A stretch of DNA of 64,000 nucleotides from an uncultured Acidobacteriota bacterium (GCA_963772065.1 CAVYVZ010000010.1:449802-513801); one strand, 5' to 3'. Shown: positions 7,388-60,885, numbered from the stretch's first letter. Notes: generated from the sequence alone by a model not told the origin. Program-made: numbers and translations.

Positions 7388-7438
7388 CGCGTTCGAGTGA
7401 TCAACAGGCTCTACGCGCGACGCTGCGGTTTGGATGTA

Positions 7439-8242
7439 TCAGAGGCCTGCCGAAGGCGTGCCGACGAGGAACTTCTCCCCTGTCGGCGCGGGAACGCCGC
7501 CTGCGGGTTCGAGCGTGACGGCGACGGCAACGGGCGGCGCAATGTCGATGGGGGTCTGAAAGACCGCGGTGGCGCGACCGCTTGCGTCGGGGGCCAGCAG
7601 CCCCGCGCTCACCGGCGCCTGGGCCGTCACGACCCACACCTGGTACACGCGACCTTCGGGGGCGGGCGGCAGATTGGCGGTGTTGAAGACCATGCCGCGA
7701 TCGCGGCTCCACAGGGCACGCGCGGTCGCCTGCGGTGCGACCGCCTGCCCAGCGAGATCGATCCGCACCAGGTCCGGCGCGACGAGCACGGCCATCGCGC
7801 TCTGCGCCGTGTCCGCCGCGCGCCGCGCCTGCAGTGTCTCCCCTGCGGCCTCCGACGCACGCCGCTCCGCATCGTCCACGCGGGCCTCGAGGTTCGAGAT
7901 GCGTCCTTGAAGCGTCAACGCATAGGCGCCGAGCCCCACGGCGATGAGCATCGAGGCCGCGAGCGGCAACCAGGTCAGCGCCGCAGGTCGAGACGAGGGC
8001 TGACGTGAGGCCGGTGGCCTCTCCAGTCCAACTTCAGCCAGCACGCGCGCCCGAAGCTCCGGCCTCGGCGTCCGCTGGGCCACCGATCGCGCGAGCGCAT
8101 CGGCGACTCGTTGAAGAGAACGGACGTCCTCACGGCAGATGGGGCACGAGGCCGCGTGCGATTCGAACGCGCGGCGCTCGGCGGCGTCGAGCGCGCCGAG
8201 GACGTACGGGGCGGCGAGCGCCTGTTCGTCGTGCGTGCTCAT
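7439..8242 (-). CDS. Anti-sigma factor (zf-HC2 N-domain, RskA-type C-domain)
   Basis: It carries the zinc motif HAASCPIC, a central TM segment and a C-terminal VYQVWVV...LEPAGG RskA-like domain. The start overlaps the sigma gene stop by 4 nt. Confidence 0.85.
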
Positions 8243-8847
8243 GCCGGCTCTCCAGACAGCGCCTCACGCAGCTTGAGGAGCCCAAGACGGATGCGCGTCT
8301 TCACTGTTCCGAGCGGCTGCTCGAGCCGCTCCGCGATCTCGGCTTGCGTGAGGCCTTCGAAGTACGCGAGCTCGATCGCGAGCCGCTGAAGCAACGGCAG
8401 CTCGCGAAGCGCCTCCCTCACCCGTTCGGCGTCGCGTGCAGCGGCGAGCGCGTCGCCGGGGTCGGCGGCCGGCGCCGACAGGTCCACCCATGCCTCCTCA
8501 CCCGCGGCGGCACGCGCGTCGGGCCGCGCTCGTCGCGCCCGTAGACGGTCGATCGCGCGGGTTCGCGCCATCGTCATGAGCCAGGCTGCGACCGTTCCGC
8601 GCGTCGCGTCGTAGCGGCCGGCCTGCCGCCACGCCTGCGCGAAGACCTCCTGGAGCACGTCTTCGGCATCCCCCTCGTCGCCGAGGACGCGGAGGACCAG
8701 CGAATAGACGGGACGGGAGTGCGCGTCGTACAGCGCCGCAAGAGCACGGCCGTCACCAGCCGCCACGCCCGCGACGCAGTCCGCATCGTCGGCCTGGTCG
8801 CGGCTGCCCGGCAGCGCCACCAGCACGGCACACAGCCACATGATCAA
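8239..8847 (-). CDS. ECF-type RNA polymerase sigma-70 family factor
   Basis: Region 2 ([12 protein letters not shown]) and region 4 ([31 protein letters not shown]) are both present. An alternative ATG start lies at 8841. Confidence 0.9.
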
Positions 8848-8865
8848 GTCCGGCGGATCATATCC

Positions 8866-9303
8866 TCACTTTTCGACGATGTCCTTCTTCAGCCCGTTCG
8901 CGGCGGCGAGCAGATCGTCCTTCTCCTTCTGAGGAACCTTGAAGCGATCGAGTGTCGCGACCAGATGCTGCACGCTCTTGTTCCAATCGGCCTCGCTGAT
9001 CCCCAGTCCGGCGTGCGTCGTGCGCATGTCGCGGCCCTTGTAGACGCACGGGCCGCCCGTCGCGAAACACAGGAAGTCGACGACGTGCTGGCGGATCCGC
9101 TGCTTCGAGTCGGTCCCGTGTCCAGCAAAGAACTTGCTCAGCCCCGGATCTGCCACGAGGCGTCCGATGAAGTCATCGGTGACCGCCGCAATCGCGTCGT
9201 AGCCGCCAAGCCGCTTGTACAGAGGGTCGGTTGCCGTCTGCTGCGCCGCGGCAGACGTGCAGACCAGCAACAGCATCAGGCTGCCGGAAATCACACGTGT
9301 CAT
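8866..9303 (-). CDS. Group 1 truncated haemoglobin with Sec signal peptide
   Basis: The trHb core is LYKRLGGYDAIAAVTDDFIGR...FLCFATGGPCVYKGRDMRTTHAGLGI. I chose the ATG at 9303 because it gives MTRVISGSLMLLLVCTSAAA|QQ, a typical signal peptide. Confidence 0.85.
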   Translation of the reverse strand: MTRVISGSLMLLLVCTSAAAQQTATDPLYKRLGGYDAIAAVTDDFIGRLVADPGLSKFFAGHGTDSKQRIRQHVVDFLCFATGGPCVYKGRDMRTTHAGLGISEADWNKSVQHLVATLDRFKVPQKEKDDLLAAANGLKKDIVEK

Positions 9304-9358
9304 GTGCACTCCTCCACCTGTTCCTACGTCTGGGGTGAGACTTTGGATTTCGATCGAC

Positions 9359-9443
9359 GGGCTCAAGGCCCAAGGCTCAGGGCCCACGGCCCTGACGACC
9401 TAAGCCGTCAAGGTCCTAAGCCTTAAGCCCTAAGCCTTAAGCC
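9359..9443 (-). repeat. Heptamer-repeat compound hairpin between two minus-strand genes
   Basis: The outer arms 9360-9377/9419-9436 form 18 contiguous pairs only in minus-strand RNA. Inner perfect hairpins lie at 9378-9394 and 9397-9415. Confidence 0.75.
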
Positions 9444-9449
9444 GACTTT

Positions 9450-10115
9450 CTAACGAACCGTCGCTGACGAATCGAGCCGAATGCGGACCACCGCGCCCGC
9501 CGGCAACTCGATGTCCTTGCCATCGGTCGCAGCAATCGCGCCGCCTGCGCCGATCACGGCGCCCAGAATCGCGCCCTTCACTCCGCCAAGAACGCCGCCG
9601 ATGATCCCGCCAACGCCGGCGCCGACACCGGCCGTCCCGGCCTCTTCGCGGATCCCTTCGCTCTTGAAGACTTGCGTGGCTGTGGCGCGAATCGGGACTT
9701 CGCGGCCGTTCACCACCATCTGATCGAACGAGAGCGTCAGGCTGCCGCTCCGGTCGATGCGGCCAGCTTTCTTCACATTGCTGACCACGCCTCGCACGGT
9801 CGAGCCTGACGGCACCAGCACGCGACCGTTCTGCATGAGGTCCACGGCTGTTGTGGCCTCGAATCGCTGCTCAACCGTCGCCGATTCTGAGCTCAGCGAG
9901 TTTTGCAGGCGGACGTCGAGCTCCTGCCCGGTCGGGATAGTGCCCGGCCGATCGTTGTTCACGGTTGTGGGCTGGCTCTGCGCCGTGCTGCTCACCTCGG
10001 ACGTGCTTGGCGGCGAATTCGGCGCCGTCGTCGGCCCGTTATCGCGCGTTGTGGCGCCACACCCGACAGCGCCGATTGTGGCCGCCAGCAGCGCGGCTCG
10101 AAAACTCAGGGACAT
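9450..10115 (-). CDS. Lipoprotein with C-terminal glycine-zipper
   Basis: AGGAGG lies 8 nt upstream of the ATG at 10115. It has the lipobox LAATIGAVGC and a Gly-zipper (GVGAGVGGIIGGVLGGVKGAILGAVIGAGG). The longer track ORF starting at 10460 is an upstream extension. Confidence 0.7.
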   Translation of the reverse strand: MSLSFRAALLAATIGAVGCGATTRDNGPTTAPNSPPSTSEVSSTAQSQPTTVNNDRPGTIPTGQELDVRLQNSLSSESATVEQRFEATTAVDLMQNGRVLVPSGSTVRGVVSNVKKAGRIDRSGSLTLSFDQMVVNGREVPIRATATQVFKSEGIREEAGTAGVGAGVGGIIGGVLGGVKGAILGAVIGAGGAIAATDGKDIELPAGAVVRIRLDSSATVR

Positions 10116-10221: not shown

Positions 10222-12040
10222 TCACGCGCGCTGGGCCAGTGCGTCGTCGCTCGATGCCGGGGCCTCGGCGGTGCCGTTCTTGAACTGGAGCTCGTACAGG
10301 CGATGGTAGATGCCGCGCTGCGCGAGCAGTTCCTGGTGCGTGCCCGACTCCCGCAGCCGCCCCTTGTGCAGGACCAGAATCCGATCCATGTCCTGAATCG
10401 TCGAGAGGCGGTGCGCGATCGCGATCGTCGTGCGGCCGCGCATGAGAACGGACAGCGCATCCCGGATCAAAACCTCGGTCTCGGTATCGACGCTGGACGT
10501 CGCCTCGTCCAAGATGAGCACTTTCGGATCGAACGCAATAGCCCGCGCGAACGAGAGGAGCTGCTTCTGACCGACCGAAAGCGTCGCGCCGCGCTCGGCG
10601 ACAGGCGTTTGCATGCCAAGCGGCAGGCGGTCGATGAAGCCGTCGGCATGAACGGCGCGCGCGGCCCGGCGCACCGCCGCGTCGTCGATGGCCGGGTCGC
10701 CCAGCCGCACGTTGCTGGCGATGGTCCCTGAAAAGAGGTGCACGTCCTGCAGCACCAGCGCGAACAGCGCTCGCACGGCGTAGAGGTCCATGTCGCGGAT
10801 GTCCACGCCGTCAATCGTGATTCGCCCCTGTTGCACGTCGTAGAAGCGCAGGAGCAGATTGATGATCGTCGTCTTTCCCGAACCCGTGGCGCCCACGATC
10901 GCCACGCGCTGCCCCGGCTCGACGACGAAGGACAGCCCGCGAATTACCGGGTCACCCTCCACATAAGAGAAGGTCACGTCCTCGAACGCGATGCGTCCCA
11001 CGGCCCCCGCGGGACGCGCGACGGGCGCCTCGGGGTTGCGGACGTCGACCGGGGTGTCGAGGAGCTGGAAGATGCGCTCGGAGGATGCCATCGCGCCCTG
11101 GAGGACGTTGAACTTCTCCGACATGTCGCTGATCGGGCGGAAGAAGCGCTGCGGCGTACAGGAGAAACGCCACGAGGGAGCCGACGGTGAGCGTCCCCCC
11201 TTGGACCCACGCGCCGCCGAACCACAGGATGAGGGCCGACGCGAGCGCGCTGACGATCTCGATGAGCGGGTAAAAGGTCGCGTAGTAGAAGATCGAGTCG
11301 ATGTTCGCGTCACGGTGGGCCCGGTCGATCTCGTCGAACCGCGCGAAATCCTTCGCCTCCCTGCGGAACAGCTGCACGGTCGCCATCCCGGTGATGCGTT
11401 CCTGTAGGTACGCGTTGATCCGTGCGATCCAGATCCGGACCGTTCGGTAGGAGTCGCGCACGTTGCGGCGAAACCACTGCGCGACGAGCGCGATGAGCGG
11501 CAGGACCGAAAACGTGACGAGCGCAAGCCGCCAGTCCATCCACACGAGCACGCCCATGATGCCGATGAGCGTGAAGACATCGCCGAAGATCGACACCACG
11601 CCCGTCGTGAACAGGTCGTTGAGGACGTCCACGTCGGTGGTCACGCGCGTCATCAAACGGCCAACCGGGTTGCGGTCGTAGAAGCGAAGGTCGAGCCGCT
11701 GCAGATGCGAGTACACCTGCATCCGCAGGTCGAACATGATCCGCTGCCCGGTCATCTGCATCGTCCAGGTCTGGACGTACTCGAGGACGAACGACGCGAG
11801 CAGGGTGAGCAGGAACAGCGCCGCGATGCCACCCAGCCCGGAGAGGTCCTTCGCGGGAATGTAGTCGTCGATCACGACCTTCGTGAGATACGGCGGCGCG
11901 AGCTGCAGCACGGAGTGCCCGACGATCGCCGCGATCGCCGCCGCCACCGGCGCCTTGTAAGGGCGGAGGTACGTCAGGATCCGGCGCATCAAGCGCGCGT
12001 CGTAGGCCTTGCCGAGCACCTCTTCTTCGTGAATCGACAT
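10222..12040 (-). pseudogene. ABC exporter, fused permease/ATPase (MsbA-like), interrupted by one frame break
   Basis: The TMD frame (from 12040) reads ...[10 protein letters not shown]. The other frame continues [14 protein letters not shown] through Walker A (GATGSGKTT), LSVGQKQ and Walker B. The junction lies at about 11150-11158, and deleting one base restores the frame. Confidence 0.85.
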
Positions 12041-13779
12041 CAGGATGCCGCCAACTCTTCCTCGAGGAGCTGCTTTCGATAGAGCGCGGCATAGACGCCG
12101 TCCCGCGCGACGAGGTCGTGGTGCTGCCCGCGCTCGACGATGCGGCCGTGGTCGAGCACCAGAATCTGGTCGGCATCACGAACCGTGGAGATCCGGTGCG
12201 ACACGATGATCGAGGTTCGCTCGCGCATGACGCCGCGGAGCCGATGGAGGATCTCCTCTTCCGTGTAGGTATCAACCGCCGACAGCGCATCGTCCAGGAT
12301 GAGGATCCGCGGATCGACCGCCAGGGCGCGCGCGATGGCCGTGCGCTGCTTCTGGCCCCCCGAGAGCGTGATGCCGCGCTCGCCGACGGCGGTGTCGTAG
12401 CCCTTCGGGAAGTCCTCGACGTCTTTGTCGAGCCGCGCGATCCGGCTCGCGTTTTCGATCCGATCCCGCGACGGCGTTCCAGGCGCGCCGAAGGCGATGT
12501 TCTCGACCAGCGTGTCGCTGAAGAGGAACGCCTCCTGCGGCACGAACCCGATCGCGCCGCGCAGGACCGTGAGGGGAATGTGCCGCACATCCACACCATC
12601 GATGAACACCGTGCCGGGCGGCGGCTGGTGGAGACGCGGGAGCAGCGAGAGCAGCGTCGACTTCCCCGAACCGGTCGCGCCGACGATGGCCGTGGTCTTT
12701 CCGGCCGGGAAAACCGCCGAGACGTCGTCGAGCACCACCGCAGACCCAAACGCGAACGTCAGGTTCCGGATCTCGATCTCCCCTGTGATGTCGGCGGCCG
12801 CGCGCGCCTCGGCATCCGTGATCTCGGGCTGCATGTCGAGCACCGCGAGCATCCGCTTCCATGACGCCATTCCCCGCTGGAGCATGTTGGTGACCCAGCC
12901 GAAGGCGACCATCGGCCACGACAGCATCATCAAGTAGCTGTTGAGCGCGACGAGCTCTCCCACGGTGATGCGCCCGGCGACCACCTCCCGGCTGCCGAGC
13001 CAGAGCACGAGGAGCGCCCCGAGTCCCATGAAGACGCTCATGCTCGGGTAGAACGCACCCTGCAGGCGGATGAGCGCCCTGTTGCGCGTGACGTACTCCT
13101 CGTTCGAGACACGAAACCGGTCGAGCTCCGCCTGCTCCTGCCGATAGGCACGGACCACGCGCACGCCGGCGAGCGATTCCTGGGTGACCGCGCTCACGTC
13201 GGAGAGCTGCTCCTGGATCCGCTCGAAGCGCTTGTGGATCGCCGCGCCGAAGTACTTCACGGCTATCGTCACGAACGGCAGCGGAATCAGTGCGAGGAGC
13301 GTCAGGCGCGCATCGATCGACAGCATCAGCAGGATCGCGACCAGAAAGGTGAGGCTGGTGCTCGAGGTGTACATCACCGCCGGACCGATCATCATCCGGA
13401 CCGCACTGAGGTCGTTGGTCGCACGCGACATGAGGTCGCCGGTGCGCCGCTCCTGGAAGAAGGCCAGCGGCATGCGCTGCAAGTGCGCGAAGAAGTCGTT
13501 GCGCAGGTCGTACTCGATCCAGCGCGACGCGCCGATGACGACGCGCCGCACGAGAAAGCGGAACACGCCGCCGACGATCGCGAGCGCGAGCAGGGCGAGG
13601 GCGTAGAAGCGCACCTTGCCGCTCGTCACGCCGGCAAGGAGATCGTCGATCGCGTACTTCAGAACCCACGGACCCGCGAGCTGGATCGCGGTCGCCACGA
13701 CGCCGCACGCGAGTCCCGTCAGGTATGCGCGGCGGTAACGGGCAACGTACCCCAGCAATCGGCGCCACGGGGAGGGCAT
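12040..13779 (-). CDS. ABC exporter, fused permease/ATPase (partner of the downstream gene)
   Basis: It has six predicted TM helices plus GATGSGKST, LSGGQKQR and ILILDD. Its stop overlaps the downstream start (TGATG). Confidence 0.9.
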   Translation of the reverse strand: MPSPWRRLLGYVARYRRAYLTGLACGVVATAIQLAGPWVLKYAIDDLLAGVTSGKVRFYALALLALAIVGGVFRFLVRRVVIGASRWIEYDLRNDFFAHLQRMPLAFFQERRTGDLMSRATNDLSAVRMMIGPAVMYTSSTSLTFLVAILLMLSIDARLTLLALIPLPFVTIAVKYFGAAIHKRFERIQEQLSDVSAVTQESLAGVRVVRAYRQEQAELDRFRVSNEEYVTRNRALIRLQGAFYPSMSVFMGLGALLVLWLGSREVVAGRITVGELVALNSYLMMLSWPMVAFGWVTNMLQRGMASWKRMLAVLDMQPEITDAEARAAADITGEIEIRNLTFAFGSAVVLDDVSAVFPAGKTTAIVGATGSGKSTLLSLLPRLHQPPPGTVFIDGVDVRHIPLTVLRGAIGFVPQEAFLFSDTLVENIAFGAPGTPSRDRIENASRIARLDKDVEDFPKGYDTAVGERGITLSGGQKQRTAIARALAVDPRILILDDALSAVDTYTEEEILHRLRGVMRERTSIIVSHRISTVRDADQILVLDHGRIVERGQHHDLVARDGVYAALYRKQLLEEELAAS

Positions 13780-13805
13780 GGACCTAGTGTATAAGAGGGA
13801 CCGGA

Positions 13806-15632
<1,827 letters not shown>

Positions 15633-15664
15633 TGGACCCATCTCCACCGTCCGATACTGTCTGT

Positions 15665-16477
15665 ATGAAGTTCAAATTTGCCACGGGTGGTTTCATCGCT
15701 CTGGTCCTCGCATGCAGCGCCTCGGCGCAGGCCCAGTTCCGGGTCGAGGATCCACTTCCCCCGTCGGAGAAGTACCACGTCGAGTTTGGGATGACCTTCT
15801 GGTCGCCCGAGCCCGAAATGGTGATCCGCTTCGACGGACCGGCCGGGACGGGTACGGACGTCGACTTCGTCCAGGAATTCGGGATTGCGAAAAAGCGGTT
15901 CCGTGAATTCCGCGGGACGCTCAAGCCGGGCCGTAAGCACAAGCTCCGCTTCGACTACGTGCCGTTCAAGTACGACGCGGCCGCGACTATTCAGCGCACC
16001 TTCGTGTTCGGCGGCCAGTCGTTTACGGCCGGCGTGCCCGCCTCCACCGATGTCAAATGGGATCTCTGGAAGTTCGGGTACGAGTGGGACGTCTATGCGG
16101 GCTCAGGGGGATTCGTCGGCATCGTGGCCGACGTGAAGTACAACAAGGTGTCGGCGCAGATTTCCGCGGCCGGCCTCGGCACCGCGCTGGCGCAGGCGAA
16201 CGCGCCGGTTCCCGGCGTGGGCGGCATCGCGCGCGGCTACATGTCGAAGAACTTCTCCGTCACGGGCGAGTTCACCTACTTCAAGATGCCCGACAGCATC
16301 AGCCAGGAGATCGACGGCAAGTTCTACGACTTCGATGTTTTTGCCACGGTGAACGCGGGACGCAACGCCGGCATCCACGGCGGGTACCGATCGGTCACCG
16401 TCGACTATCTGGTTTCGGAAGACGCCGGCGCGCTGAGGATGAAAGGCCTGTACTTCGGCGGCGTCGTGCGTTTCTAG
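15665..16477 (+). CDS. Outer-membrane beta-barrel protein (hypothetical)
   Basis: It has a signal peptide (MKFKFATGGFIALVLACSASAQA), alternating beta-strand pattern and a terminal ...YFGGVVRF. Only the last 271 codons of the 797-aa track ORF are credible. Confidence 0.7.
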   Translation: MKFKFATGGFIALVLACSASAQAQFRVEDPLPPSEKYHVEFGMTFWSPEPEMVIRFDGPAGTGTDVDFVQEFGIAKKRFREFRGTLKPGRKHKLRFDYVPFKYDAAATIQRTFVFGGQSFTAGVPASTDVKWDLWKFGYEWDVYAGSGGFVGIVADVKYNKVSAQISAAGLGTALAQANAPVPGVGGIARGYMSKNFSVTGEFTYFKMPDSISQEIDGKFYDFDVFATVNAGRNAGIHGGYRSVTVDYLVSEDAGALRMKGLYFGGVVRF

Positions 16478-51111: not shown

Positions 51112-52231
51112 TCAGATTCTGAGGACGTCGGGCGCGCTGAGGCCGCGCCCGCGAACGGTCATCGGGACGGACGGCCATTCGCCGGTCGACGTAATCAACT
51201 CGGTGCCATCTTCCGTCACCAGCGCCGTATCTTCAACCTTCGTCCCGGTAATGCTGGGATTCCAGGCAAACGCCTGCGGCGCCCGCACCTGCTCCTTGCT
51301 CGATGCATGCGCCACCCATTCACGCGATCGATACCCGATGGCACCGCCCTGGTGATGCTTCCGTTCCTCTCCAGGAAACCCCGCGCGCGCATACGCGGCG
51401 GCGGCGGCGGCGAAGAGGTCGGCGGCCGTCGCCCCGGGACGCGTGGCGTCCAGCAGCGCGCCGAATACGCCGCACGTCGCCCGCGTACGGTGCGCCAGGT
51501 CGGGATCGATCGAGCCCGCGTTGACGATGCGCGAGATGGAAACCGAAAGGCCGTGTCGCTGCGCGACCTGCGCGACCAGCACGGTGCGCCGCCACGCGAC
51601 GGTTGTCGGCACGGGATGGCGGAACCGCGCGAGCCGCTCGTCCGCGGCGACGAGCGCGACGATCGCGCGCGCACCGATGGACGCCGCCGCGTCGCTTGCG
51701 CGGCGCGCGATCTCCTGCTCCGAAAGACCGGGCTGCAGCGCACGGCAGGTGCGCTCGAACGCCTGCGCCAACCTCGCGGCCAAGCTGACGGTATCGATCC
51801 TGTTCGGCGGCCGTCAGCGGCGCGCGCAGCCGCGCGACGTCGACCACAGTGGTGCCAGGAATCGGCCAGTCGGCGCCCACGACCGCAGCGGCGCCGAGCA
51901 CCTGACGCGCCAGCCGTACCGGCGTATCGGGCGCCGCATGATCGTCGGCCCAGGGGTACTCGACCGGCGTGAAGGCAAAATCCGCCAGCTCCTCGCCGGC
52001 AAGACGAGGCATCTCTATCGCGTTCGCGAGGATGTGCACGCGGCCATCGGCGGCGACGAGAAGCGACCCCGCGCCGAGCTCGCGGCTGCCGTCGATCCGA
52101 TTGCTCCGCCCGCCGGTGAGCCAGGCGAAGTTGGCCTGTGTGGCGAGGAGTACTCCGGCGAGACCGGCCTCGTGACACAGACGGGCCAGGCGCTCTCGCT
52201 TTTGATCCAACTCGATCACGGCTTCATTCAA
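51112..52231 (-). pseudogene. M24-family peptidase (Xaa-Pro peptidase/creatinase-like) with one frame break
   Basis: The N-domain frame ends ...LTAAEQDRYRQLGRE. The catalytic domain continues in the next frame (LAQAFERTCRALQPGLSEQEI...HHQGGAIGY...). The junction lies at about 51768-51782, and deleting one base restores the frame. Confidence 0.8.
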
Positions 52232-52990
52232 TCACAAACGAGGGATCGCGAGGCCGCCGTCGACGTGGATCACGGAACCGGTGGCGTACGGGATCTGTCC
52301 TCCAAGCAGCGATGCGACGACGCGGCCGACGTCGTGCGGCTGCCCCCATCGCCCCTCTGGGACGAGACCGTCGGCGATGCGCCGGTCGTACATCTCGCGC
52401 ACGCCCGCGGTCATGTCGGTGGCAATGATGCCAGGGCGAACCTCGTACACTGGAATCCGCGCCGCGGCGAGGCGCAACGCGAACAGCTGGACGGCCATCG
52501 CGAGCCCCGCTTTGCTCACGCAGTAGTCCCCCCGATTCGAAGACGCGAGCTCGGCGGACACGGAGGTGACGAACACGATCGACCCGGCCGCACCGGCCGC
52601 CACGAGCCGCTGCGCGTACGCCTGCGTGAGAAAGTACGGACCCTGGAGATTGGTCCGGATCAGCTCTTCGAAGCTTTCCTCGGTCGCCTCGAGCAGGTCC
52701 GCGCGGACGCGGGGTGCGCGCCCTGCGTTGTTCACGAGTGCGCTCACCGTGCCGAAACGCTCGAACGCACGATCGAGCAGGCGCTCGCGATCGGCGGCAC
52801 TCGCCACATCGGCAGGCCAGTACTCGACGTCGGTGCCCGTCCTCTCGAGCTCGTCGAGAACCGGCTGCACCTCCTCGCGCGGGCGTACGCCGCAGAGCGC
52901 AAGCCGCCATCCGTCGGCCGCGAGCATCCGAGCAATACCGAGGCCGATCCCGCGCGTCCCGCCGGTCACGATCGCTGTCCGAGTGGTCAT
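52232..52990 (-). CDS. SDR-family oxidoreductase
   Basis: TGGTRGIGLGIA, NNAG and a Y..SKAG catalytic motif are present. GGAGGGAG lies upstream, and the start overlaps the upstream stop (ATGA). Confidence 0.9.
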   Translation of the reverse strand: MTTRTAIVTGGTRGIGLGIARMLAADGWRLALCGVRPREEVQPVLDELERTGTDVEYWPADVASAADRERLLDRAFERFGTVSALVNNAGRAPRVRADLLEATEESFEELIRTNLQGPYFLTQAYAQRLVAAGAAGSIVFVTSVSAELASSNRGDYCVSKAGLAMAVQLFALRLAAARIPVYEVRPGIIATDMTAGVREMYDRRIADGLVPEGRWGQPHDVGRVVASLLGGQIPYATGSVIHVDGGLAIPRL

Positions 52991-54381
52991 CTCCCTCCGA
53001 AGAAGGTCAGGTACGGGCCACCTTCGGCCAGCCGCTTCACAAAGAGCGCCGCCTCTCGCAAATGGTAGTCGCCCCACTGGCACGACTCACCGCGCGGAAT
53101 GCGTGACCCGGCCGGGACGTGATCCCACCCGTTCGGCCAGTGATACACCGCGTGCAGCAGCAGCCCGTGATGACCCGGGTCGGTGGAGAGATAGGGCTCG
53201 CCGCAGAGCGTCTCGAGAACCAGCAGGCCGGCCTGCTCGTAGCGCGTGCTGTCGCCGCCGCGCGACGACAAGAGGCGCCCAAGGCGCAGCAACCCCTGCG
53301 CCGCGATGGCCGCCGCGGAGCTGTCGACCGGCTCCCGATCGTTGAACGGATCCGATGCGCGGCCGCCCCAGTCGCCGAGCGCCGCGAGTCCCGGCGCGCC
53401 GGTGTCCCAATACGGGATTCCGTCGGCCGCTGCGGCTCGATCGATGTAGAAGTCGCACGTCGCGCGCGCGGCTTCGACCATCCACGCTTCGACGGCTGCC
53501 TTCCCGCCGACGTCGGCGAGTGCGGCGTCCTCACAGGTGCCAATGAACTCGAGCTCCTCGGCGAATCCGAGCATCGCCCACGCGAGGCCGCGCGTCCACG
53601 TCGAGAATGGGGAGTAGCCCTGCTGGCTGTTGGGTCCGCGATACGTGCCATTCGCCACGTTGAAGAGGCTCTCGTGCGCGCAGCGGCCGCGCACGTCGAA
53701 CGTATCGCGGCCGCGGCCGTAGTACACGTTGAAGTCGGCGGTCGCGCGCGCGTGCTGCACCAGGCGCACCAGCAGATTCACCGCCGCGTCCTGTTCTTCG
53801 ACGAGGCGGTGTCCGAGCAGATGAGAGAGCGCGAGGGCACGCAGCGAACGCATCGTGTCCACGAACAGCGAGTGGGCGCCGTTGAACGAATAGATGTACC
53901 CTCCGGGCGGCGCCTGCGACGAGCCTGATCGAGGGGTCCAGCGGCGCGCCTGAACGGCACCGCTCACCATCAGGGCCAGCTCGTAGAACCGCACCTCCCA
54001 TTCGCTCGCGTCGAATCGGCCTTCGTGCGCCAGGCGCCAGAGCGTGCCGTAGGTGCTGACGTTGTTGAACCCGTGATCGTGCACGCCCACGTGCGTCAGG
54101 TGGGGAGCCATCCGCTCGAGCGTGCGCGACCGGCCCAGATCGAGAAACGCGCGGTCGCCGTCTGCATCGAACTGCAGCAGCGCCGAGCCGAACTGGAACC
54201 CTTGGGTCCACTCGGTCCAGCCGCGCGACCGGTAGCGCCCCTCCACGGTGAACACGGGCGCCCCATCCTCCGCGCGCCACGTGTCCTCGAGCGCGCGGAT
54301 CTTCGACGCCGAGGCCGTGAACAGCCGCCCGATGCCGGGCAGCAGATCCTGCGGGGTGCGAGTGCGATCGATTCGAATCAT
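52987..54381 (-). CDS. Glycoside hydrolase family 88-like (unsaturated glucuronyl hydrolase type) protein
   Basis: It has an (alpha/alpha)6-type composition and an HDHGFNN motif resembling the GH88/GH105 HD.GF block. The family call is from memory. Confidence 0.6.
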   Translation of the reverse strand: MIRIDRTRTPQDLLPGIGRLFTASASKIRALEDTWRAEDGAPVFTVEGRYRSRGWTEWTQGFQFGSALLQFDADGDRAFLDLGRSRTLERMAPHLTHVGVHDHGFNNVSTYGTLWRLAHEGRFDASEWEVRFYELALMVSGAVQARRWTPRSGSSQAPPGGYIYSFNGAHSLFVDTMRSLRALALSHLLGHRLVEEQDAAVNLLVRLVQHARATADFNVYYGRGRDTFDVRGRCAHESLFNVANGTYRGPNSQQGYSPFSTWTRGLAWAMLGFAEELEFIGTCEDAALADVGGKAAVEAWMVEAARATCDFYIDRAAAADGIPYWDTGAPGLAALGDWGGRASDPFNDREPVDSSAAAIAAQGLLRLGRLLSSRGGDSTRYEQAGLLVLETLCGEPYLSTDPGHHGLLLHAVYHWPNGWDHVPAGSRIPRGESCQWGDYHLREAALFVKRLAEGGPYLTFFGGR

Positions 54382-54591: not shown

Positions 54592-54603
54592 ATCATATAT
54601 GAT
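54592..54603. promoter_or_regulatory. Perfect palindrome ATCATATATGAT 9 nt upstream of the apbE start
   Basis: This was read directly. It is AT-rich in a GC-rich context, contains -10-like hexamers (TATGAT), and no Shine-Dalgarno sequence lies between it and the ATG. Confidence 0.3.
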
Positions 54604-54612
54604 TGCCCGTTC

Positions 54613-55613
54613 ATGGCAGCCATCAGCCGGCGCGCGCTGCTGACACGAGTTTCCTCGACGCGCGCAGCGGACGACGAGTCCGAGCGGACCTGGCTGCGCG
54701 TCCATCGGACGGCGATGGCCTGCCGTGTCGAGGTCGTCGTGTGCGCCGCACAGCCGGACGCCCTCGTCGCGGCGCGGGCCGCGCTCGACGAAGCCGACCG
54801 GCTCGAGGCGATGCTCACCGTGTTCCGCGACACGAGCGCCCTCGTCGGCGTGAACCGCTTCGCCGCGCAGCGTCCGGTCGTGGTTCCTCGCGAGCTCTTC
54901 GAGCTGCTGCAGCGGAGTCTCGTCCTCCATCGCGAGACCGAGGGGGCGTTCGACATCTCGTCCACTCCGTTGAGCCGCTGCTGGGGCTTCCTGCGGCGCG
55001 CAGGGCGGCTGCCCCTTCCGGCGGAGATCGACTCGGCGCGCGCGTGCGTCGCGATGAATGCGATGGCGCTCGATGCATCCGAGGCGTCGGTGTTCTATCG
55101 GCATCCGAGCCTGGAGTTGAACCTCGGCGCGATCGGCAAGGGCTTCGTGCTCGATCGGATGGCATCTGGACTTCGCGACTCGGGAGTGCCCCACGCGCTC
55201 GTGTCGGCCGGACGCAGCAGCGTGATGGCCCTTGGCGGCGAGCGTCCGGGCTGGCGCGTCGATCTCCGTTCGCTGGTGCGAGACGAGATATTGGGGCGGC
55301 TCGTCCTGACGGAATGCGGCGCTCGGCACGAGCGGCGCGGGCGAGCAGTATTTCGAGGTGAACGGCGTGCGGTACGGCCACGTGCTCGACCCGCGCACCG
55401 GATGGCCCGCGTCCGGCGTACGCAGCGCGAGCGTCGTGGCGGCGAGCGCGCGCCGACGCCGACGCGCTGTCGACCGCCTTCCTCGTCGGGGGGCTCGATC
55501 TCGCCCGCCGCTACTGTGCGTCTCACCGCGACGTGCTGGCGATCGTCACGCCCGACATGGGGCCGCCGCAGGTGTTCGGCACGTATCGAGATGCATCGCT
55601 GGAGCTGGCATGA
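54613..55613 (+). pseudogene. apbE: FAD:protein FMN transferase (ApbE) with two frame breaks
   Basis: It has a Tat-like N-terminus (SRRALL). The sequence reads ...MACRVEVV...GAFDIS...LNLGAIGKGFVLD..., then [28 protein letters not shown] in frame +1 and [12 protein letters not shown]... in the next frame. The junctions lie at about 55314-55322 and 55446-55455. Confidence 0.85.
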
Positions 55614-56146
55614 AGATGGACCGCCGCGGGCTGACGCCCGCGCAACAGTCCGGTTTGATCCTGCTGCGAACCCTCATCGGCTGGCACTTTCTGTATGAGG
55701 GGTATGTGAAGCTGATTGGACCGATGTGGACGCGCGCCGGCGTCCCGATGCAGCCGTTTTCGTCGGCCGGCTACCTGAGGGGCGCCACAGGGCCCATGGC
55801 CGACCTCTTTCACTCGCTCGCGGCATCGCCCTGGGTCACGACGCTCGACCATCTCGTGGCCTGGACGCTGTTCGTGGCCGGCCTCTTCCTGTTACTCGGG
55901 CTGCTGACGCAGGTCGGGTGCGTGCTTGCGGGGGGCCTGCTCGCGTTATTCTACGTTTCGGCAATCCCGCTGTCGGGCGTGGCGGAGCCGCGCACCGAGG
56001 GAACGTACCTCATCGTCAACAAGAACCTCATCGAGCTGGCGGCGGTCCTCGTGCTGTTCACCTTCCGTACAGGACTGATCGCCGGGCTCGATCGGTTGTG
56101 GAACGCGCGCCGCACGCCGGCGCACCAGAACGAGGCAGCCGCATGA
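55610..56146 (+). CDS. DoxX-family membrane protein
   Basis: [18 protein letters not shown] is present, with four TM helices. The start overlaps the apbE stop (ATGA). Confidence 0.8.
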
Positions 56147-57456
56147 ACCTCACTCCCGAACAGGAAGCCCTCGGCCGTCGCAACTTCCTGAAGGTGCTCG
56201 CGGGAACGCCGGCGATTGCCGCGCTCGGCGCGGCAGCCGCGGCAAAGGGTCCGGTGCCGGGCGGCCCGGTGCGCGTCGGCTTCATCGGCGTGGGCGGCCA
56301 GGGCCGTGCGCTCCTCGACTCGGTGCAGGCGACGCACACCGACGTGCGCGCGCTCTGCGACATCAATCCTTCGTCGCTGACACGCGCCGATTCGGTGCTG
56401 GCGGACAACAAGCTGCCGCCGGCCCGCCACTACGCCGAGTGGAAGGAGATGCTCGAGAAGGAAGACATCGAGGCCGTGATTATCGGCGTGCCGCTCTGGG
56501 CGCACGCCGACATCACGGTGGGCTGCCTCGAGGCCGGCAAGCACGTGCTGTGCGAAAAGATGATGGCGTGGGATGTGGCCGGCTGCGAGCGGATGCGCGA
56601 TGCGGCCCGGCGAACGGGCAAAGTGCTGGAGATTGGGTATCAGCGCAACTACAACCCGATCTATCAATCCGCGTACGAAGGGGTTATTCGCGCCGGCGTG
56701 CTCGGCGACGTGTACTACGCGCGGCTCGCCTGGCACCGCAACGCGAACTGGCGCCGCAAAGCGGAACCGCCGTCGCCGGACTATGACCCGTCACGATGGG
56801 GTTATCCAACATTCGATCACCTGATCAACTGGCGGCTGTACCACAAATACTCGCAAGGCCTCATGGCGGAGCTCGCCAGCCACCAGATCAACATGACCAA
56901 CCTGTTCCTTGGTGCGGAGCCGGAGAACGTGCTCGGCGTCGGCGGCGTGTATCGGTTCAAGGACCGCGAAGTGCCCGACCACGTGTTCACCACGTTCGAG
57001 TACCCCGGCGGCCGCACGGCGACGTTCACGGCGATCGAGTCGAACGCATTCGACGACTACTACGAGATGTTCATGGGAACGAAGGGCACGCTGATCATCC
57101 GCCGCGAGCGTGATGCCCTGCTCTTCGAGGAGGGCGCACCGCGCGGCACCGGCATCGAGGTCGCCTCGCGCGGCGGCGCCCCGACTGCACAGTCGTCGGA
57201 AACGATCACCGGCGCCACCGCCGACCCGCTCGCGCCGGCGGCCGGAGCCGCGCCGGCCACGCCTGGCGCCGCGCAGCAAGCGCCCGCCACGCCGACGCAG
57301 CGCCGCATTCCAACCCGGCGGCAGATCGAGCGTTTCTGCGCGGCGATCCGCGTGGGCACGCCGCTCGGGTGCGGACCCGACCGGGCCATGGCCTCGGCGC
57401 GTGCCTGCATCCGCGCGAACGAAGTGATCGCGAAGTCGAAGGCGCAGACGACATGA
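56143..57456 (+). CDS. Tat-exported Gfo/Idh/MocA-family oxidoreductase
   Basis: It has a twin-arginine signal ([11 protein letters not shown]), a Rossmann motif ([10 protein letters not shown]) and the signature HVLCEKMMA. The start overlaps the doxX stop (ATGA). Confidence 0.9.
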
Positions 57457-58214
57457 TTATCGAGGCTGGAGACACAAGGAGGTCAGGGAGATCAGGGAGG
57501 AGGAATGTTCTCCCCGATCTCCCTGATCTCCCTGCGACCTCCAACAAACCTCACGTCACGAAGCAGCAGTACGCGTACGCGTCGCTGCGTCACGCGATCC
57601 TCCGGTGCGAGCTCGGCCCCGGTGAGCGGCTGATCATCGACGATCTGGCGCGGCGTCTCGATACGAGCATCATCCCGGTGCGCGAGGCGATTCGTCTGCT
57701 CGAGTCGGAGGGTCTCGTCGTCAATATCGCGCACGTCGGCGCCACCGTGGCGCCGATCTCGCGCTCGTCGGTGACCGAGACGTTCACGTTGCTCGAGGGT
57801 CTTGAAAGCGTCTCGACACGGAGCGCGGCGCAGCGCGCCGAGCCGGCGGGAATCGCCACGCTCGAGGCGATCGTGGAAGCGATGGACGCCGCGCTCGTGC
57901 AGGGCCGCTACGATGAATGGGCCGCGCTGAACACGCGCTTCCACCTGGCGATGACGGCGCTCGCCGGCATGCCGATGCTGGAGCAGATGCTGCGGCGCGC
58001 CCTCGACCACTGGGAGCGGGTGCGGCGCTATTTCTTCACCGGCGTGCTCGCCCACCGCACGGAGCTGGCGCAGAGCGAGCACCGGATGATGCTGGCGCAG
58101 ATCAAGGCGCGCGATCTCGCCGAGCTCGAACGCACCGTGCGGCTGCACAACCAGGGCGCGCTGGCCGCATACGCCGAGTATCTCGATGCCCACCCGGAGG
58201 AGCCCACCCCGTGA
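57453..58214 (+). CDS. GntR-family transcriptional regulator (FCD-type C-domain)
   Basis: The wHTH is YAYASLRHAILRCELGPGERLIIDDLARRLDTSIIPVREAIRLLESEGLV. The only in-frame start is the ATG at 57453, so the first ~30 codons are encoded by the palindromic repeat at 57478-57542. Confidence 0.75.
   Translation: MIIEAGDTRRSGRSGRRNVLPDLPDLPATSNKPHVTKQQYAYASLRHAILRCELGPGERLIIDDLARRLDTSIIPVREAIRLLESEGLVVNIAHVGATVAPISRSSVTETFTLLEGLESVSTRSAAQRAEPAGIATLEAIVEAMDAALVQGRYDEWAALNTRFHLAMTALAGMPMLEQMLRRALDHWERVRRYFFTGVLAHRTELAQSEHRMMLAQIKARDLAELERTVRLHNQGALAAYAEYLDAHPEEPTP
57478..57542. repeat. ~65-bp near-perfect palindrome built from ATCAGGGAG 9-mers
   Basis: GGAGGTC AGGGAGATCAGGGAG ... CTCCCTGATCTCCCT GC GACCTCC gives 22 pairs with a 2-nt bulge. 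No T-run follows. Confidence 0.8.
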
Positions 58215-59683
58215 GCCAGTCCCCCTGGCCGAGGGTAGCCACGCTGAAAACAGCCGCCGCGTTTCGCGAGCACCTCGACAAGGCGGGCATCAACCTCGAA
58301 TTCGACGAACACCTGCAAACCGGGCCCGACTCCCCCCTCGCGCGATCGATGCGCGTCGGCGACGTCACCGTCGGCAACCGCTTCTCCATTCTCCCCATGG
58401 AAGGGTGGGACGGCACGTCTGACGGCGAGCCGAGCGACCTCACGACGCGCCGGTGGCGACACTTCGGGCTGAGCGGCGCGAAATTGATCTGGGGCGGCGA
58501 GGCGGTGGCGGTGCGGCCCGAGGCACGCGCCAACCCGAATCAGCTCGTCATCAACGGGCGCACGCAGGCGGCTCTGGCCGCGCTGCGGTCCGAGCTCGTG
58601 GCGGCGCACGTCGACGCATTCGGAACGCGCGCCGAACACGACCTGTTCATCGGGCTGCAGCTGACCCACTCCGGCCGCTTCGCGCGTCCGATCGAGAAAC
58701 ATGTGCCCGCTCCGCTCGCTGCGTATCGGCATCCGCTGCTCGACCGGCGCTTCCCCAACGGTCTGCACGTGTTGACGGACGGCGAGATCGACCGCATCGT
58801 GCTCGAGTTCATTCGTGCGGCGCGCCAGGCCTTCGACGCCGGCTACCAGTTCGTCGACGTGAAGCATTGTCATGGCTACTTCGCGCACGAGCTGCTCGGC
58901 GCGCACCATCGCCAGGGCAAATACGGCGGCACCCTCGAGAACCGCACGCGGTTCATGCGCGAGGTGATCGACGGCATTCGCGCCAACGTGCCCGGCCTCG
59001 GCGTCGGCGTACGTCTGTCGGTCTTCGACGTCGTGCCGTTCAGGAAGGACTCGCTCGGCCGCGGCGTGCCGGAAACATCGCCGGACGCCAACCGGCATGC
59101 GTTTGGTTTTCTCGAGCACGAGGACATCGATCACGCCCTCGAGGAGAGCCGGGCGATCCTGCGCATGCTCGAGGCGCGGGACGTGAAGTGGATCTGCGTC
59201 ACGGCCGGCAGTCCGTACTATTGCCCCCACGTGCAGCGGCCGGCGCTCTTCCCTCCTGCCGACGGATACGATCCACCCGAGGACCCCCTCCGCGGGGTCG
59301 CCCGGCAGATCGACGCAACGGCTCGACTGAAAGCGGCGTTTCCGAACTTGATATTCGTCGGCTCGGCGTACTGGTACTTGCAGGAATGGCTGCCACACGT
59401 GGGGCAGTACAACGTCCGCAATGGCCTGACCGACTTCGTCGGCCTCGGGCGCGTGGCGCTCTCGTATCCCGACCTGCCGGCCGATGTGCTTCGCGGCGCG
59501 CCGCTGCGCCGCAAGTCGATCTGCCGGACGTTCAGCGACTGCACCACGGGGCCGCGACTCGGCCTGGTGTCGGGATGCTTCCCACTCGATCCGTTCTACG
59601 CCGCGCATCCCGACGCCATCCGGCTGAAGGAGCTGAAGCAGGGGCCCGCCTCACCCGAGGCGCGGGCGGGTGTTCGCACGTGA
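58211..59683 (+). CDS. NADH:flavin oxidoreductase (Old Yellow Enzyme-like TIM barrel)
   Basis: ...NRFSILPMEGWDG...GAKLIWGGEAVAV...GLQLTHSGR...DVKHCHGYF.HE is present. The GTG start overlaps the GntR stop (GTGA). Confidence 0.8.
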   Translation: MSQSPWPRVATLKTAAAFREHLDKAGINLEFDEHLQTGPDSPLARSMRVGDVTVGNRFSILPMEGWDGTSDGEPSDLTTRRWRHFGLSGAKLIWGGEAVAVRPEARANPNQLVINGRTQAALAALRSELVAAHVDAFGTRAEHDLFIGLQLTHSGRFARPIEKHVPAPLAAYRHPLLDRRFPNGLHVLTDGEIDRIVLEFIRAARQAFDAGYQFVDVKHCHGYFAHELLGAHHRQGKYGGTLENRTRFMREVIDGIRANVPGLGVGVRLSVFDVVPFRKDSLGRGVPETSPDANRHAFGFLEHEDIDHALEESRAILRMLEARDVKWICVTAGSPYYCPHVQRPALFPPADGYDPPEDPLRGVARQIDATARLKAAFPNLIFVGSAYWYLQEWLPHVGQYNVRNGLTDFVGLGRVALSYPDLPADVLRGAPLRRKSICRTFSDCTTGPRLGLVSGCFPLDPFYAAHPDAIRLKELKQGPASPEARAGVRT

Positions 59684-60885
59684 AGCGCGATCAGGTTCTC
59701 GCCGTCCTCACTGGGTTCCTCGCGCTCTTCGCCATCGTCGGCTTTGCGTTGTACGGCTTGCCGCGGTTCTATCCATTCTGGGTGGAGGAGCTCGGGTGGA
59801 CGCGGCAGCAGGTGACCTCGGGCAACGCGTACAGCAAGATCGTCGTGGCCCTGGCGTTCGGCGCGCTGGCCGGACGCATGGTGGATGCGTGGGGACCGCG
59901 GCGGATCATGCTGGTCGGGATCGTCATCGCGGGAGGCGCGCTCATCGGCCTCTCGTATGTCCGGTCGCTGGCCGGCTTCTATTTCTTCTACGGCTTCAAC
60001 GCGCTCGGCTACGTCCTCGGCGGCCCGCTGCCGAACCAGGTGCTGCTGTCGCGATGGTTCGATCGTGCGCGCGGCAAGGCGATGGGCATCGCGTATCTCG
60101 GCATCGGCGTTGGAGGCGCGCTCGTTCCGCTGCTGGCCGGTGCGCTGACGGAAGCCTTCGACTGGCGCGGCGCGATCAGAGCGCTCGGCGTGCTGATGAT
60201 TATCGTCGCGCTGCCCGCTGCATGGTTCGTGCGCGAACCGGAGGCTTCCGCTCGAGCCGCCGCGACGGCGCCGCCGCTGAAGGGCGTGCTCTCGAGCCCC
60301 GCCTTCTACTTCCTGATGATCGGCAGCATGGCGTCGATCGGCGCGGTCGGCGGCACGATCCAGAACCTCGCGCTGTACCTCCGGCTCGATCGACAGCTCC
60401 CACAGGGCACGATCGACACCACGCTGTCGCTGATCCTTCTCGGGAGCCTCGTCGGGCGGATCACGATGGGGTGGCTGGCCGACCGGTGGCCCAAGAAGCG
60501 CGTCATGCTGCTCATCTACGTGATCGTGGCCGCGTCCATCCCGCCACTTTTCTATGCGTCGACGCCTGTAGGGCTCGGCGTCTGCGCCTTTGCCTTCGGC
60601 ATTGGCCTGGGAGGCGACTACATGATCATCCCGCTGATGGCGGCCGAGTTGTATGGCCTCGCAATCATGGGACGCGTGATGGGGGTCGTGCTCACCGCCG
60701 ACAGTGTGGCCGAAGCGATGGTGCCCATGGGGGTTGCGACCCTGCGCGACCAGACGGGGAGCTATACGACGGGATTCATGGTTCTCGTGGGCCTCGCGGC
60801 CGTAGGGGCGGCCGCCGTCGCGTTCCTCCCCTCCCGGCCGCAGGGGGTGGCGCAAACAAACGGCGTAACTGCTTCGCCGTCTTAA
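59680..60885 (+). CDS. MFS transporter
   Basis: It has twelve hydrophobic segments and an MFS loop motif (LSRWFDRARGKAMG). The GTG start overlaps the upstream stop (GTGA). Confidence 0.9.
   Translation: MKRDQVLAVLTGFLALFAIVGFALYGLPRFYPFWVEELGWTRQQVTSGNAYSKIVVALAFGALAGRMVDAWGPRRIMLVGIVIAGGALIGLSYVRSLAGFYFFYGFNALGYVLGGPLPNQVLLSRWFDRARGKAMGIAYLGIGVGGALVPLLAGALTEAFDWRGAIRALGVLMIIVALPAAWFVREPEASARAAATAPPLKGVLSSPAFYFLMIGSMASIGAVGGTIQNLALYLRLDRQLPQGTIDTTLSLILLGSLVGRITMGWLADRWPKKRVMLLIYVIVAASIPPLFYASTPVGLGVCAFAFGIGLGGDYMIIPLMAAELYGLAIMGRVMGVVLTADSVAEAMVPMGVATLRDQTGSYTTGFMVLVGLAAVGAAAVAFLPSRPQGVAQTNGVTASPS

Follow-up and report, generated by a model that had tools for sequence, protein, structure and literature searches.

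Covalent flavinylation by ApbE, which transfers flavin mononucleotide (FMN) from flavin adenine dinucleotide (FAD) to proteins, is so far known for a small set of flavin-binding domains. In its classical clients (NqrC, NqrB, RnfG, RnfD, NosR, PceC and PplA) the acceptor Ser/Thr ends a motif resembling D-x-x-[S/T]-G-A-[S/T], the flavin serves extracytoplasmic electron transfer, and apbE lies beside the gene of the presumed client (PMC12052999). A comparable arrangement is found in a 64,000-nucleotide stretch, here called the window, from an uncultured soil Acidobacteriota bacterium (GCA_963772065.1 CAVYVZ010000010.1:449802-513801), where at positions 54613-57456 apbE and doxX precede gfo, the gene of a Gfo/Idh/MocA oxidoreductase with a twin-arginine translocation (Tat) signal. 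Unlike the classical clients, the presumed client is here an NAD(P)-binding Gfo/Idh/MocA protein without an FMN_bind domain, and its motif lies in a loop modelled as disordered; moreover, the motif of the window family is degenerate (S-S-E-[T/S]) and the window ApbE has neither a lipoprotein nor a Sec signal. Comparative sequence analysis provides strong support for an ApbE-flavinylated, Tat-exported Gfo enzyme, whose acceptor residue would be T354 or T359.

The demands of ApbE on its substrate are modest: it needs just the seven-residue motif, a D-to-A change in this motif has minor effects, and motifs inserted into loops are flavinylated; cytosolic ApbEs also exist (PMC12052999). The nearest precedent is provided by ApbE-linked Flavodoxin_4 and FMN_red proteins with inserted motifs. 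These likewise combine a non-classical fold, an inserted or extended motif and a co-localised apbE, and were likewise recognised from motif and neighbourhood. However, their folds already bind flavin non-covalently and occur mostly in Firmicutes, whereas Gfo/Idh/MocA proteins bind NAD(P). A signal-less ApbE that modifies its client in the cytoplasm is known from Klebsiella pneumoniae, where the client is a soluble fumarate reductase (PMC12052999). That client has FMN_bind and stays in the cytoplasm, whereas the one considered here would be exported by the Tat pathway after modification.

Among dehydrogenases, the glucose-fructose oxidoreductase (GFOR) of Zymomonas mobilis shares with the window protein the Gfo/Idh/MocA fold (structural match 1RYE/1OFG), Tat export and a periplasmic location. 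GFOR is exported as a folded protein with bound NADP (PMC8121099). It differs in that NADP is restored through the reduction of a second sugar, that neither a flavin nor an ApbE or DoxX partner takes part, and that the two proteins are only about 20% identical. The best structural and NCBIfam neighbours are the BT2158-type glycoside 3-dehydrogenases and the P2B11 glucuronide-3-dehydrogenase (PDB 8TDI), likewise Tat-exported periplasmic sugar enzymes. For periplasmic Tat-Gfo dehydrogenases such as BT2158 the electron acceptor was explicitly left unidentified (PMC8121099). Those relatives of the window Gfo that bear a canonical motif adjoin 3-keto-disaccharide hydrolase genes and SusC/SusD pairs. 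However, the window Gfo scores 59.8 bits against the BT_2158-family profile NF058561, far under its equivalog cut-off of 750 bits, and BT2158-like partner proteins are devoid of the motif. In Acidianus, DoxD is part of a quinone-reducing complex, the thiosulfate:quinone oxidoreductase. This DoxD/DoxA enzyme likewise couples a small membrane protein of the DoxX/DoxD type to a periplasm-facing oxidation; unlike it, the window system has no DoxA partner and a marginal DoxX Pfam match, and quinone binding is presumed.

Two broad flavinylation surveys and the target-protein account in a 2025 ApbE review make no mention of Gfo/Idh/MocA proteins or DoxX. Searches combining MocA with ApbE or DoxX gave nothing relevant in a body of literature that lacks some journals, and a prior description is possible. 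An earlier note on this DNA, which had proposed the flavinylation of Gfo, knew of no such link for this family; neither did the literature searched reveal one. What would be new, if true, is ApbE flavinylation of a new type of client. An NAD(P)-dependent Rossmann dehydrogenase modified by ApbE would represent a novel kind of two-cofactor enzyme and would also answer how the trapped NAD(P) of periplasmic Gfo-type dehydrogenases gets re-oxidised. Bacteroidota encode members with a canonical motif within polysaccharide-utilisation loci, and further such members occur in Acidobacteriota, Calditrichota, Balneolota and Ignavibacteriota; the question is therefore relevant to how glycans are turned over in soil, sea and gut.

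Gene linkage and the candidate acceptor loop

The features on which the argument turns are the following.

54613-55613, + strand: apbE, FAD:protein FMN transferase (Pfam PF02424), with two single-base frameshifts
55610-56146, + strand: doxX, DoxX-family membrane protein of 178 amino acids (Pfam DoxX), ATGA overlap at either end
56143-57456, + strand: gfo, predicted Tat-exported Gfo/Idh/MocA oxidoreductase of 437 amino acids (Pfam PF01408, PF22725, PF02894)
56143-56247, + strand: twin-arginine signal of Gfo, residues 1-35, with R12-R13
57160-57285, + strand: insertion loop of Gfo, modelled as disordered, residues 340-381
57193-57204, + strand: S351-S352-E353-T354, the orthologue-invariant loop element, with T354 as candidate FMN acceptor
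57199-57219, + strand: the heptad E-T-I-T-G-A-T, Gfo residues 353-359, specific to the clade of the window, with T359 as alternative candidate acceptor

Pfam supports the identities that the earlier note had assigned to all three genes, and the ATGA overlaps by which it had joined them are read directly from the sequence (apbE/doxX at 55610-55613, doxX/gfo at 56143-56146). The curated NCBIfam cut-offs are missed by all three proteins.

With each species represented by a single genome, a scan yielded 80 orthologous loci, all from Vicinamibacteria or Acidobacteriota metagenome-assembled genomes, with a Gfo that is 56-70% identical to that of the window. Informative for linkage are the 73 loci in which the sequence extends 1.6 kb or more upstream of gfo. 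In 65 of them apbE lies directly upstream of gfo on the same strand, and 57 have doxX within the flanks, so that the co-occurrence that the note had proposed to check is strongly conserved. The arrangements are distributed as follows.

apbE-doxX-gfo, the order of the window: 33 of 73 loci
apbE-gfo-doxX: 11 of 73 loci
apbE-gfo-gntR-doxX: 4 of 73 loci
apbE-gfo with doxX on the opposite strand, about 3 kb upstream: 5 of 73 loci
apbE-gfo, no doxX within 8 kb: 12 of 73 loci
doxX-gfo without apbE: 4 of 73 loci
gfo alone: 4 of 73 loci

The tight association is thus that of apbE with gfo, to which doxX is often added, in changing positions. The same adjacency is found in more distant lineages (P0314, P0369 and P0127), in which gene calling gives ApbE and Gfo as a single product that has a Tat signal in its interior.

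The wider Tat-Gfo subfamily was sampled by a profile search over 1.84 billion cluster representatives, from which the best 150 relatives were taken; nearly all full-length members among them have a Tat-like N-terminus. In the window Gfo, residues 340-381 form a loop that follows the last strands of the C-terminal domain and precedes the C-terminal helices; AlphaFold2 gives it a predicted local distance difference test score (pLDDT) below 50. Many of the relatives carry a canonical ApbE acceptor in the equivalent loop, between the last C-terminal-domain strands and an F-x-x-x-I-R helix.

D-G-V-S-G-A-T: P0350, P0355, P0357
D-G-M-S-G-A-T: P0332
D-G-R-S-G-A-T: P0360
D-A-L-S-G-A-T: P0386
D-S-V-T-G-A-S: P0306
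D-T-V-T-G-A-S: P0328
D-A-T-T-G-A-T: P0376

The loops of other relatives read L-D-T-G-A-T, T-S-G-A-T or L-D-A-[EM]-A-[ST]. In 95 representatives clustered at 50% identity, the pattern [DE]xx[ST][GA]A[ST] occurs 11 times within the loop (7,041 residues) and not once outside it (37,469 residues); shuffled loops gave a mean of 0.36 and a maximum of 4 matches in 2,000 trials. Within the canonical clade (n=119, 35-62% identical to P0403), the acceptor is Ser/Thr in 119/119 sequences and is preceded by Ala at -1 in 112/119, by Ser/Thr at -3 in 119/119 and by Asp at -6 in 106/119, and 73/80 marine metagenome loci of this clade read D-G-[VY]-[ST]-G-A-T. The D-G-V-S-G-A-T loop of P0403 also has a pLDDT below 50, and conservation this strong in a segment predicted to be disordered points to a site of modification. 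We regard flavinylation of the canonical-motif clade as quite probable. In one canonical-motif locus (L164) a Gfo with D-A-T-T-G-A-T has apbE directly upstream with a 4-nt overlap, this apbE being likewise split by an assembly frameshift.

The window Gfo itself does read E-T-I-T-G-A-T at codons 57199-57219, as described earlier, with Glu where the canonical motif has Asp. Across the 59,965 residues that the window encodes in six-frame open reading frames (ORFs) of at least 150 amino acids, the pattern [DE]xx[ST][GA]A[ST] is matched here and nowhere else. A lone seven-residue match in one protein carries little weight by itself; the weight comes from the comparative data. Motif positions were counted in 120 database homologues and in a genome-locus alignment of 81 sequences, comprising the 80 loci and the window. 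The heptad, whose conservation the note had proposed to check, is not conserved among orthologues. A358 occurs in 16/120 homologues and in at most 1 of the 81 genome-locus sequences. Position 359 is Ser/Thr in 96/120 and 32/81, respectively, and Ala in 34/81, most of which retain apbE. In the sister clade the loop reads E-T-x-x-G-N-T.

By comparison, the two residues at the start of the heptad hardly vary: E353 is found in 119/120 homologues and 80/81 genome-locus sequences and Ser/Thr at position 354 in 120/120 and 80/81, the genome-locus exception being in both cases a frameshifted locus. E353 remains invariant once the paralogous family described below is added, whose loop reads A-D-V-R-E-S-V. 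As far as sequence tells, the constant loop element among orthologues is (D/E/Q)-x-S-E-[T/S], embedded in an otherwise variable loop. Given the invariance of E353-[T/S]354, T354 may be the acceptor instead of the Thr that ends the heptad. The series L-D-T-G-A-T, L-D-A-E-A-S, L-D-A-S-E-S, from an alignment of the short loop segment made by eye, suggests that T354 is the homologue of the canonical acceptor. If this homology holds, T-G-A-T at 356-359 would be a clade-specific second candidate. Of the proposal that Gfo is flavinylated by the adjacent ApbE, linkage and the canonical motif in the loop of relatives thus speak in favour, whereas conservation of the heptad does not.

Two loci (L021 and L082) contain a paralogous cluster in which a second Gfo is followed by apbE, gfo and doxX, at 11650-16114 (- strand) and 5551-9932, respectively. 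Its proteins are 28% (Gfo), 30% (ApbE) and 41% (DoxX) identical to those of the window, the second Tat-Gfo is of the GFO_IDH_MocA_C2 type, and the paralogous Gfo family is abundant (6,680 matches). The region of the paralogue that corresponds to the flavinylation loop is long and nearly invariant (A-D-V-R-E-S-V-[A/S]-P-D-Q-H-x-V-P-V-x-L-R-D-P-Y-H-Q-P-H), which suggests an ordered segment rather than a floppy loop.

The proteins and a possible electron path

Gfo has an N-terminal PF01408 domain (4.4e-20) and a C-terminal domain matched by PF22725 and PF02894. In 84 sequences drawn from two paralogous families, G51, G54, D73 and E138-K139 do not vary; H247 is a further invariant residue. Judged from these alignments, the protein retains the Rossmann glycines, the acidic residue after strand 2 and the E-K-P-type motif of Gfo/Idh/MocA enzymes. 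Its AlphaFold2 model (mean pLDDT 84) matches many structures of this family in Foldseek (E-values of 1e-21 to 1e-19), the nearest solved folds being the 8TDI glucuronide-3-dehydrogenase, 1,5-anhydrofructose reductase and GFOR; among solved structures, none extends into the loop and none is a close match in sequence. Pfam finds only Gfo/Idh/MocA domains in Gfo, and neither FMN_bind (PF04205) nor another known flavinylated domain. As the note had it, the twin-arginine signal is textbook-like: G-R-R-N-F-L-K (residues 11-17), in which R12 and R13 are invariant, precedes a hydrophobic stretch rich in Ala. By analogy with exported family members, Gfo would carry non-dissociable NAD(P) (PMC8121099).

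The n-region of this signal (56143-56190) is unusually conserved, L-T-P-E-Q-x-x-x-G-R-R-N-F-L-K, with L3, T4, P5, E6, G11, R12, R13 and F15 invariant in the alignment, and recurs in the wider subfamily. It may be the binding site of a maturation factor.

Once its frame is repaired, ApbE matches PF02424 at 2.5e-63 over profile positions 1-264 of 266, with an NCBIfam ApbE score of 104 bits that lies under the equivalog cut-off of 498 bits. The motifs G-H-V-L-D-P-R-T-G and A-D-A-L-S-T are kept and are conserved in 67 orthologues; the catalytic His of ApbE has been assigned as general base (PMC12052999). A lipoprotein or secretion signal, which is typical of ApbE though not universal, is found neither in the window protein nor in its orthologues. 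Of the Tat-like N-terminus attributed to ApbE by the note, the motif S-R-R-x-L-L is present but a hydrophobic core ahead of the ApbE domain is missing. Orthologues (L001-L081) likewise have a conserved S/T-R-R-x-F/L-L motif near the N-terminus without a hydrophobic core (window 54613-54720). The arrangement does not amount to a regular Tat signal and could represent a relic or a site of contact with the Tat machinery or the client.

DoxX has four hydrophobic segments, in keeping with the four-helix membrane protein of the note, and scores 24.2 bits against PF07681, just above the gathering cut-off of 23.6. Its orthologues are 54-65% identical and occupy several positions within the locus flanks, and the DoxX of the paralogous cluster is annotated as DoxX plus, weakly, DoxD.

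Taken together, these data are consistent with the following path. Gfo would fold and bind NAD(P) in the cytoplasm, as Tat-exported members of its family do, and the adjacent signal-less ApbE would attach FMN by a phosphoester bond to a Ser/Thr of the C-terminal-domain loop, either T354, within the invariant S-S-E-T, or T359, at the end of the T-G-A-T that is specific to the clade. The Tat pathway would then export Gfo loaded with both NAD(P) and FMN. In the periplasm, Gfo would oxidise a substrate of the sugar or uronate type, the tethered FMN would re-oxidise the non-exchangeable NAD(P)H, and electrons would leave through the four-helix DoxX to the membrane quinone, for which DoxD provides the precedent. 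We assign a probability of roughly 0.6 to this mechanism as a whole, i.e., a Tat-exported Gfo sugar dehydrogenase flavinylated by ApbE, with an FMN relay and DoxX as outlet; a covalent flavin on this Gfo is likely on the comparative evidence. The odds are about even that it exemplifies a widespread, hitherto unrecognised class of ApbE clients, in which Tat-exported, NAD(P)-carrying Gfo/Idh/MocA sugar dehydrogenases would bear FMN on a flexible loop and relay electrons to quinone or other acceptors, the ApbE of Vicinamibacteria reading a degenerate D/E/Q-x-S-E-[S/T] before export. Canonical motifs would then be served by a housekeeping ApbE encoded elsewhere and the degenerate site of Vicinamibacteria by a dedicated, co-evolving ApbE.

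Weighing the alternatives

Several observations weigh against the proposed mechanism. Covalent flavin has been demonstrated on no Gfo/Idh/MocA protein. The full heptad does not extend beyond the closest clade, S-S-E-[T/S] differs at two positions from the canonical [S/T]-G-A-[S/T], and in about half of the wider subfamily the loop contains nothing recognisable as the motif. In both the window Gfo and P0403 this loop is modelled as disordered, and a flavin pocket is not evident in either AlphaFold2 model. In the marine canonical clade, apbE occurs within 6 kb of gfo in 0/80 loci and doxX in 1/80; linkage is therefore not universal, and the link to ApbE rests there on the motif. DoxX lacks a redox cofactor and reaches a marginal Pfam score, and its gene is missing from the flanks of 16/73 loci. 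Finally, the reading frame of apbE is broken in the window sequence.

ApbE might serve another client, such as DoxX, the old yellow enzyme (OYE)-like flavoprotein encoded farther downstream or an unlinked protein, in which case the Gfo motif would be unrelated and the genes would be neighbours by shared regulation. ApbE normally modifies domains of the FMN_bind type, which Gfo lacks, the heptad of the note is not conserved, DoxX has R-G-A-T in its first loop, and an FMN enzyme (Oxidored_FMN) belongs to the same operon. Against this, the long ORFs of the window hold no second acceptor-like heptad, and the canonical motif recurs at the same Gfo loop in distant relatives, including L164 with its adjacent apbE. 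Both linked candidates were rejected: the G-A-T of DoxX is lost in the paralogue (R-A-S-R-G-P) and the apbE-gfo adjacency persists in the 12 loci without doxX within 8 kb, and the OYE-like protein has no acceptor-like heptad, is encoded in only 36 loci and is dispensable for the adjacency as well. A different client is thus unlikely. Hardly more probable is that this ApbE homologue has another role, e.g., as FAD pyrophosphatase, in flavin trafficking like Treponema Ftp, or as a chaperone of Tat substrates, with E-[S/T] as a catalytic or lid element of Gfo. Hydrolytic enzymes of the ApbE family do exist (PMC4767422), the arginine motif at the N-terminus of the orthologues is unexplained, and S-S-E-[T/S] is not a canonical acceptor. 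However, the catalytic His, D-P-R-T-G and A-D-A-L-S-T of the transferase are kept, and without transfer a canonical acceptor in this loop of relatives would be difficult to account for.

As for the broken frame, which the note had already reported, two +1 shifts are found in apbE, from frame 0 to 1 near 55315 and from 1 to 2 near 55445, both backed by at least 50 orthologue ORFs in a blastx search of the window against the orthologous loci. They could mean that the module is decaying in this genome, with apbE a true pseudogene and Gfo working, if at all, without flavin. However, the stitched protein has exactly one surplus residue at either break relative to 67 orthologues, and each break is therefore a single inserted base; removing it restores an orthologue-like sequence, with catalytic segments whole and neither stop codons nor other decay. 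Unrelated genes of the window are frameshifted as well, near 51775 (- strand, M24-peptidase/creatinase-like) and near 61120 (+ strand, a GntR-like regulator), giving a total of at least four frameshifts in 13 kb; this count comes from blastx, the frame plot of third-position G+C (GC3) being ambiguous. Split genes of like kind occur in several other long-contig assemblies among the orthologous loci. In relatives with 87-88% identical Gfo from other (JGI/ENA) assemblies, ApbE is a single gene of 332 amino acids (298 in another relative). Because of the number of frameshifts, the unrelated genes hit and the intact ApbE of relatives, assembly indel errors are likelier than decay, and loss of function in this genome appears improbable. 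A much more serious contender, which we place somewhat below even odds, holds that E-T-I-T-G-A-T is a chance product of an Ala/Gly/Thr-rich loop of low complexity and that the functional site, if any, is T354. The restriction of the heptad to the closest clade, the rarity of A358 and the frequent Ala at position 359 all fit this explanation, whereas the uniqueness of the match among some 60,000 window ORF residues, the canonical motif in the same loop of distant relatives and the E-T-x-x-G-N-T retained by the sister clade speak for a meaningful heptad.

Neighbouring genes and regulation

The following features complete the locus, in a window with a G+C content of 66.6%.

54592-54603, strand not applicable: 12-bp perfect palindrome ATCATATATGAT, 9 nt before the apbE start
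57453-58214, + strand: GntR/FCD regulator gene (Pfam GntR and FCD), start at 57453 inferred from the ATGA overlap and gene calls in relatives
58211-59683, + strand: OYE-like NADH:flavin oxidoreductase gene (Oxidored_FMN, Pfam PF00724 at 3.4e-22), without signal peptide
59680-60885, + strand: major facilitator superfamily (MFS) transporter gene, the final gene of the overlap chain, called MFS_1 in close relatives

The three-gene module of the note holds as a trio but not as the limit of the unit. Further 4-nt overlaps join gfo to gntR (ATGA, 57453-57456), gntR to the OYE-like gene (GTGA, 58211-58214) and the latter to the MFS gene (GTGA, 59680-59683), and this chain therefore defines a six-gene operon. 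In relatives with 88%-identical Gfo, gene calls reproduce all six genes and their overlaps. Among the orthologous loci, gntR lies directly downstream of gfo in 29, the 4-nt overlap being called in close relatives, and the OYE-like gene is found in 36.

The palindrome ATCATATATGAT is AT-rich and unique in the window. Exact copies occur in 17/80 orthologous loci, always just before the first gene of the module (apbE; doxX in L003; gfo in L029), and none in 88 unrelated loci. It is probably, on this distribution, the operator of the GntR/FCD regulator, which would control the operon from this site.

Conserved genes flank the operon core on both sides. Upstream and divergent (51320-54381, - strand) lie genes for a protein resembling glycoside hydrolase family 88 (GH88-like, 71-76% identical in 22 loci), a short-chain dehydrogenase/reductase (SDR) and an M24-like peptidase; downstream (57453-60885, + strand) are the GntR/FCD, OYE-like and MFS genes coupled by 4-nt overlaps. 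The locus of relatives adds an altronate/galactarate-dehydratase-like gene. By these neighbours, the region looks like a catabolic locus for uronates or keto-sugars.

Among the marine loci of canonical-motif relatives (L083-L162), 32/80 have a second, BT2158-like Tat-Gfo nearby, mostly directly upstream on the same strand, and the motif-bearing and motif-free proteins could form a two-subunit enzyme. A motif on the BT2158-like partner itself was considered and dismissed, as E-G-G-T-S-A-T appears in only 1/32 and is attributed to chance. Likewise discarded as a marker of a flavin pocket was the signature W-x-R-N..W-R-R / N-W-R-L-Y, which is found throughout the subfamily irrespective of the motif. 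In L165, L167 (Larkinella punicea, QOWE01000002.1) and L168, a canonical-motif Tat-Gfo stands beside a PF12831 FAD-dependent oxidoreductase and SusC/SusD, and in L163 a DUF2306 membrane protein is encoded upstream, overlapping the gfo start; both proteins may be alternative electron outlets. The canonical-motif gene of L166 lies beside two 3-keto-disaccharide hydrolase genes and another Gfo.

Just past the gfo stop codon, an inverted repeat of 25 nt (57475-57534) is 88% complementary, with a 16-nt perfect core, CAGGGAGATCAGGGAG / CTCCCTGATCTCCCTG, made of 9-nt direct repeats. No T-run follows it, and if gntR starts at 57453 the repeat lies inside the 5' end of the gntR ORF.

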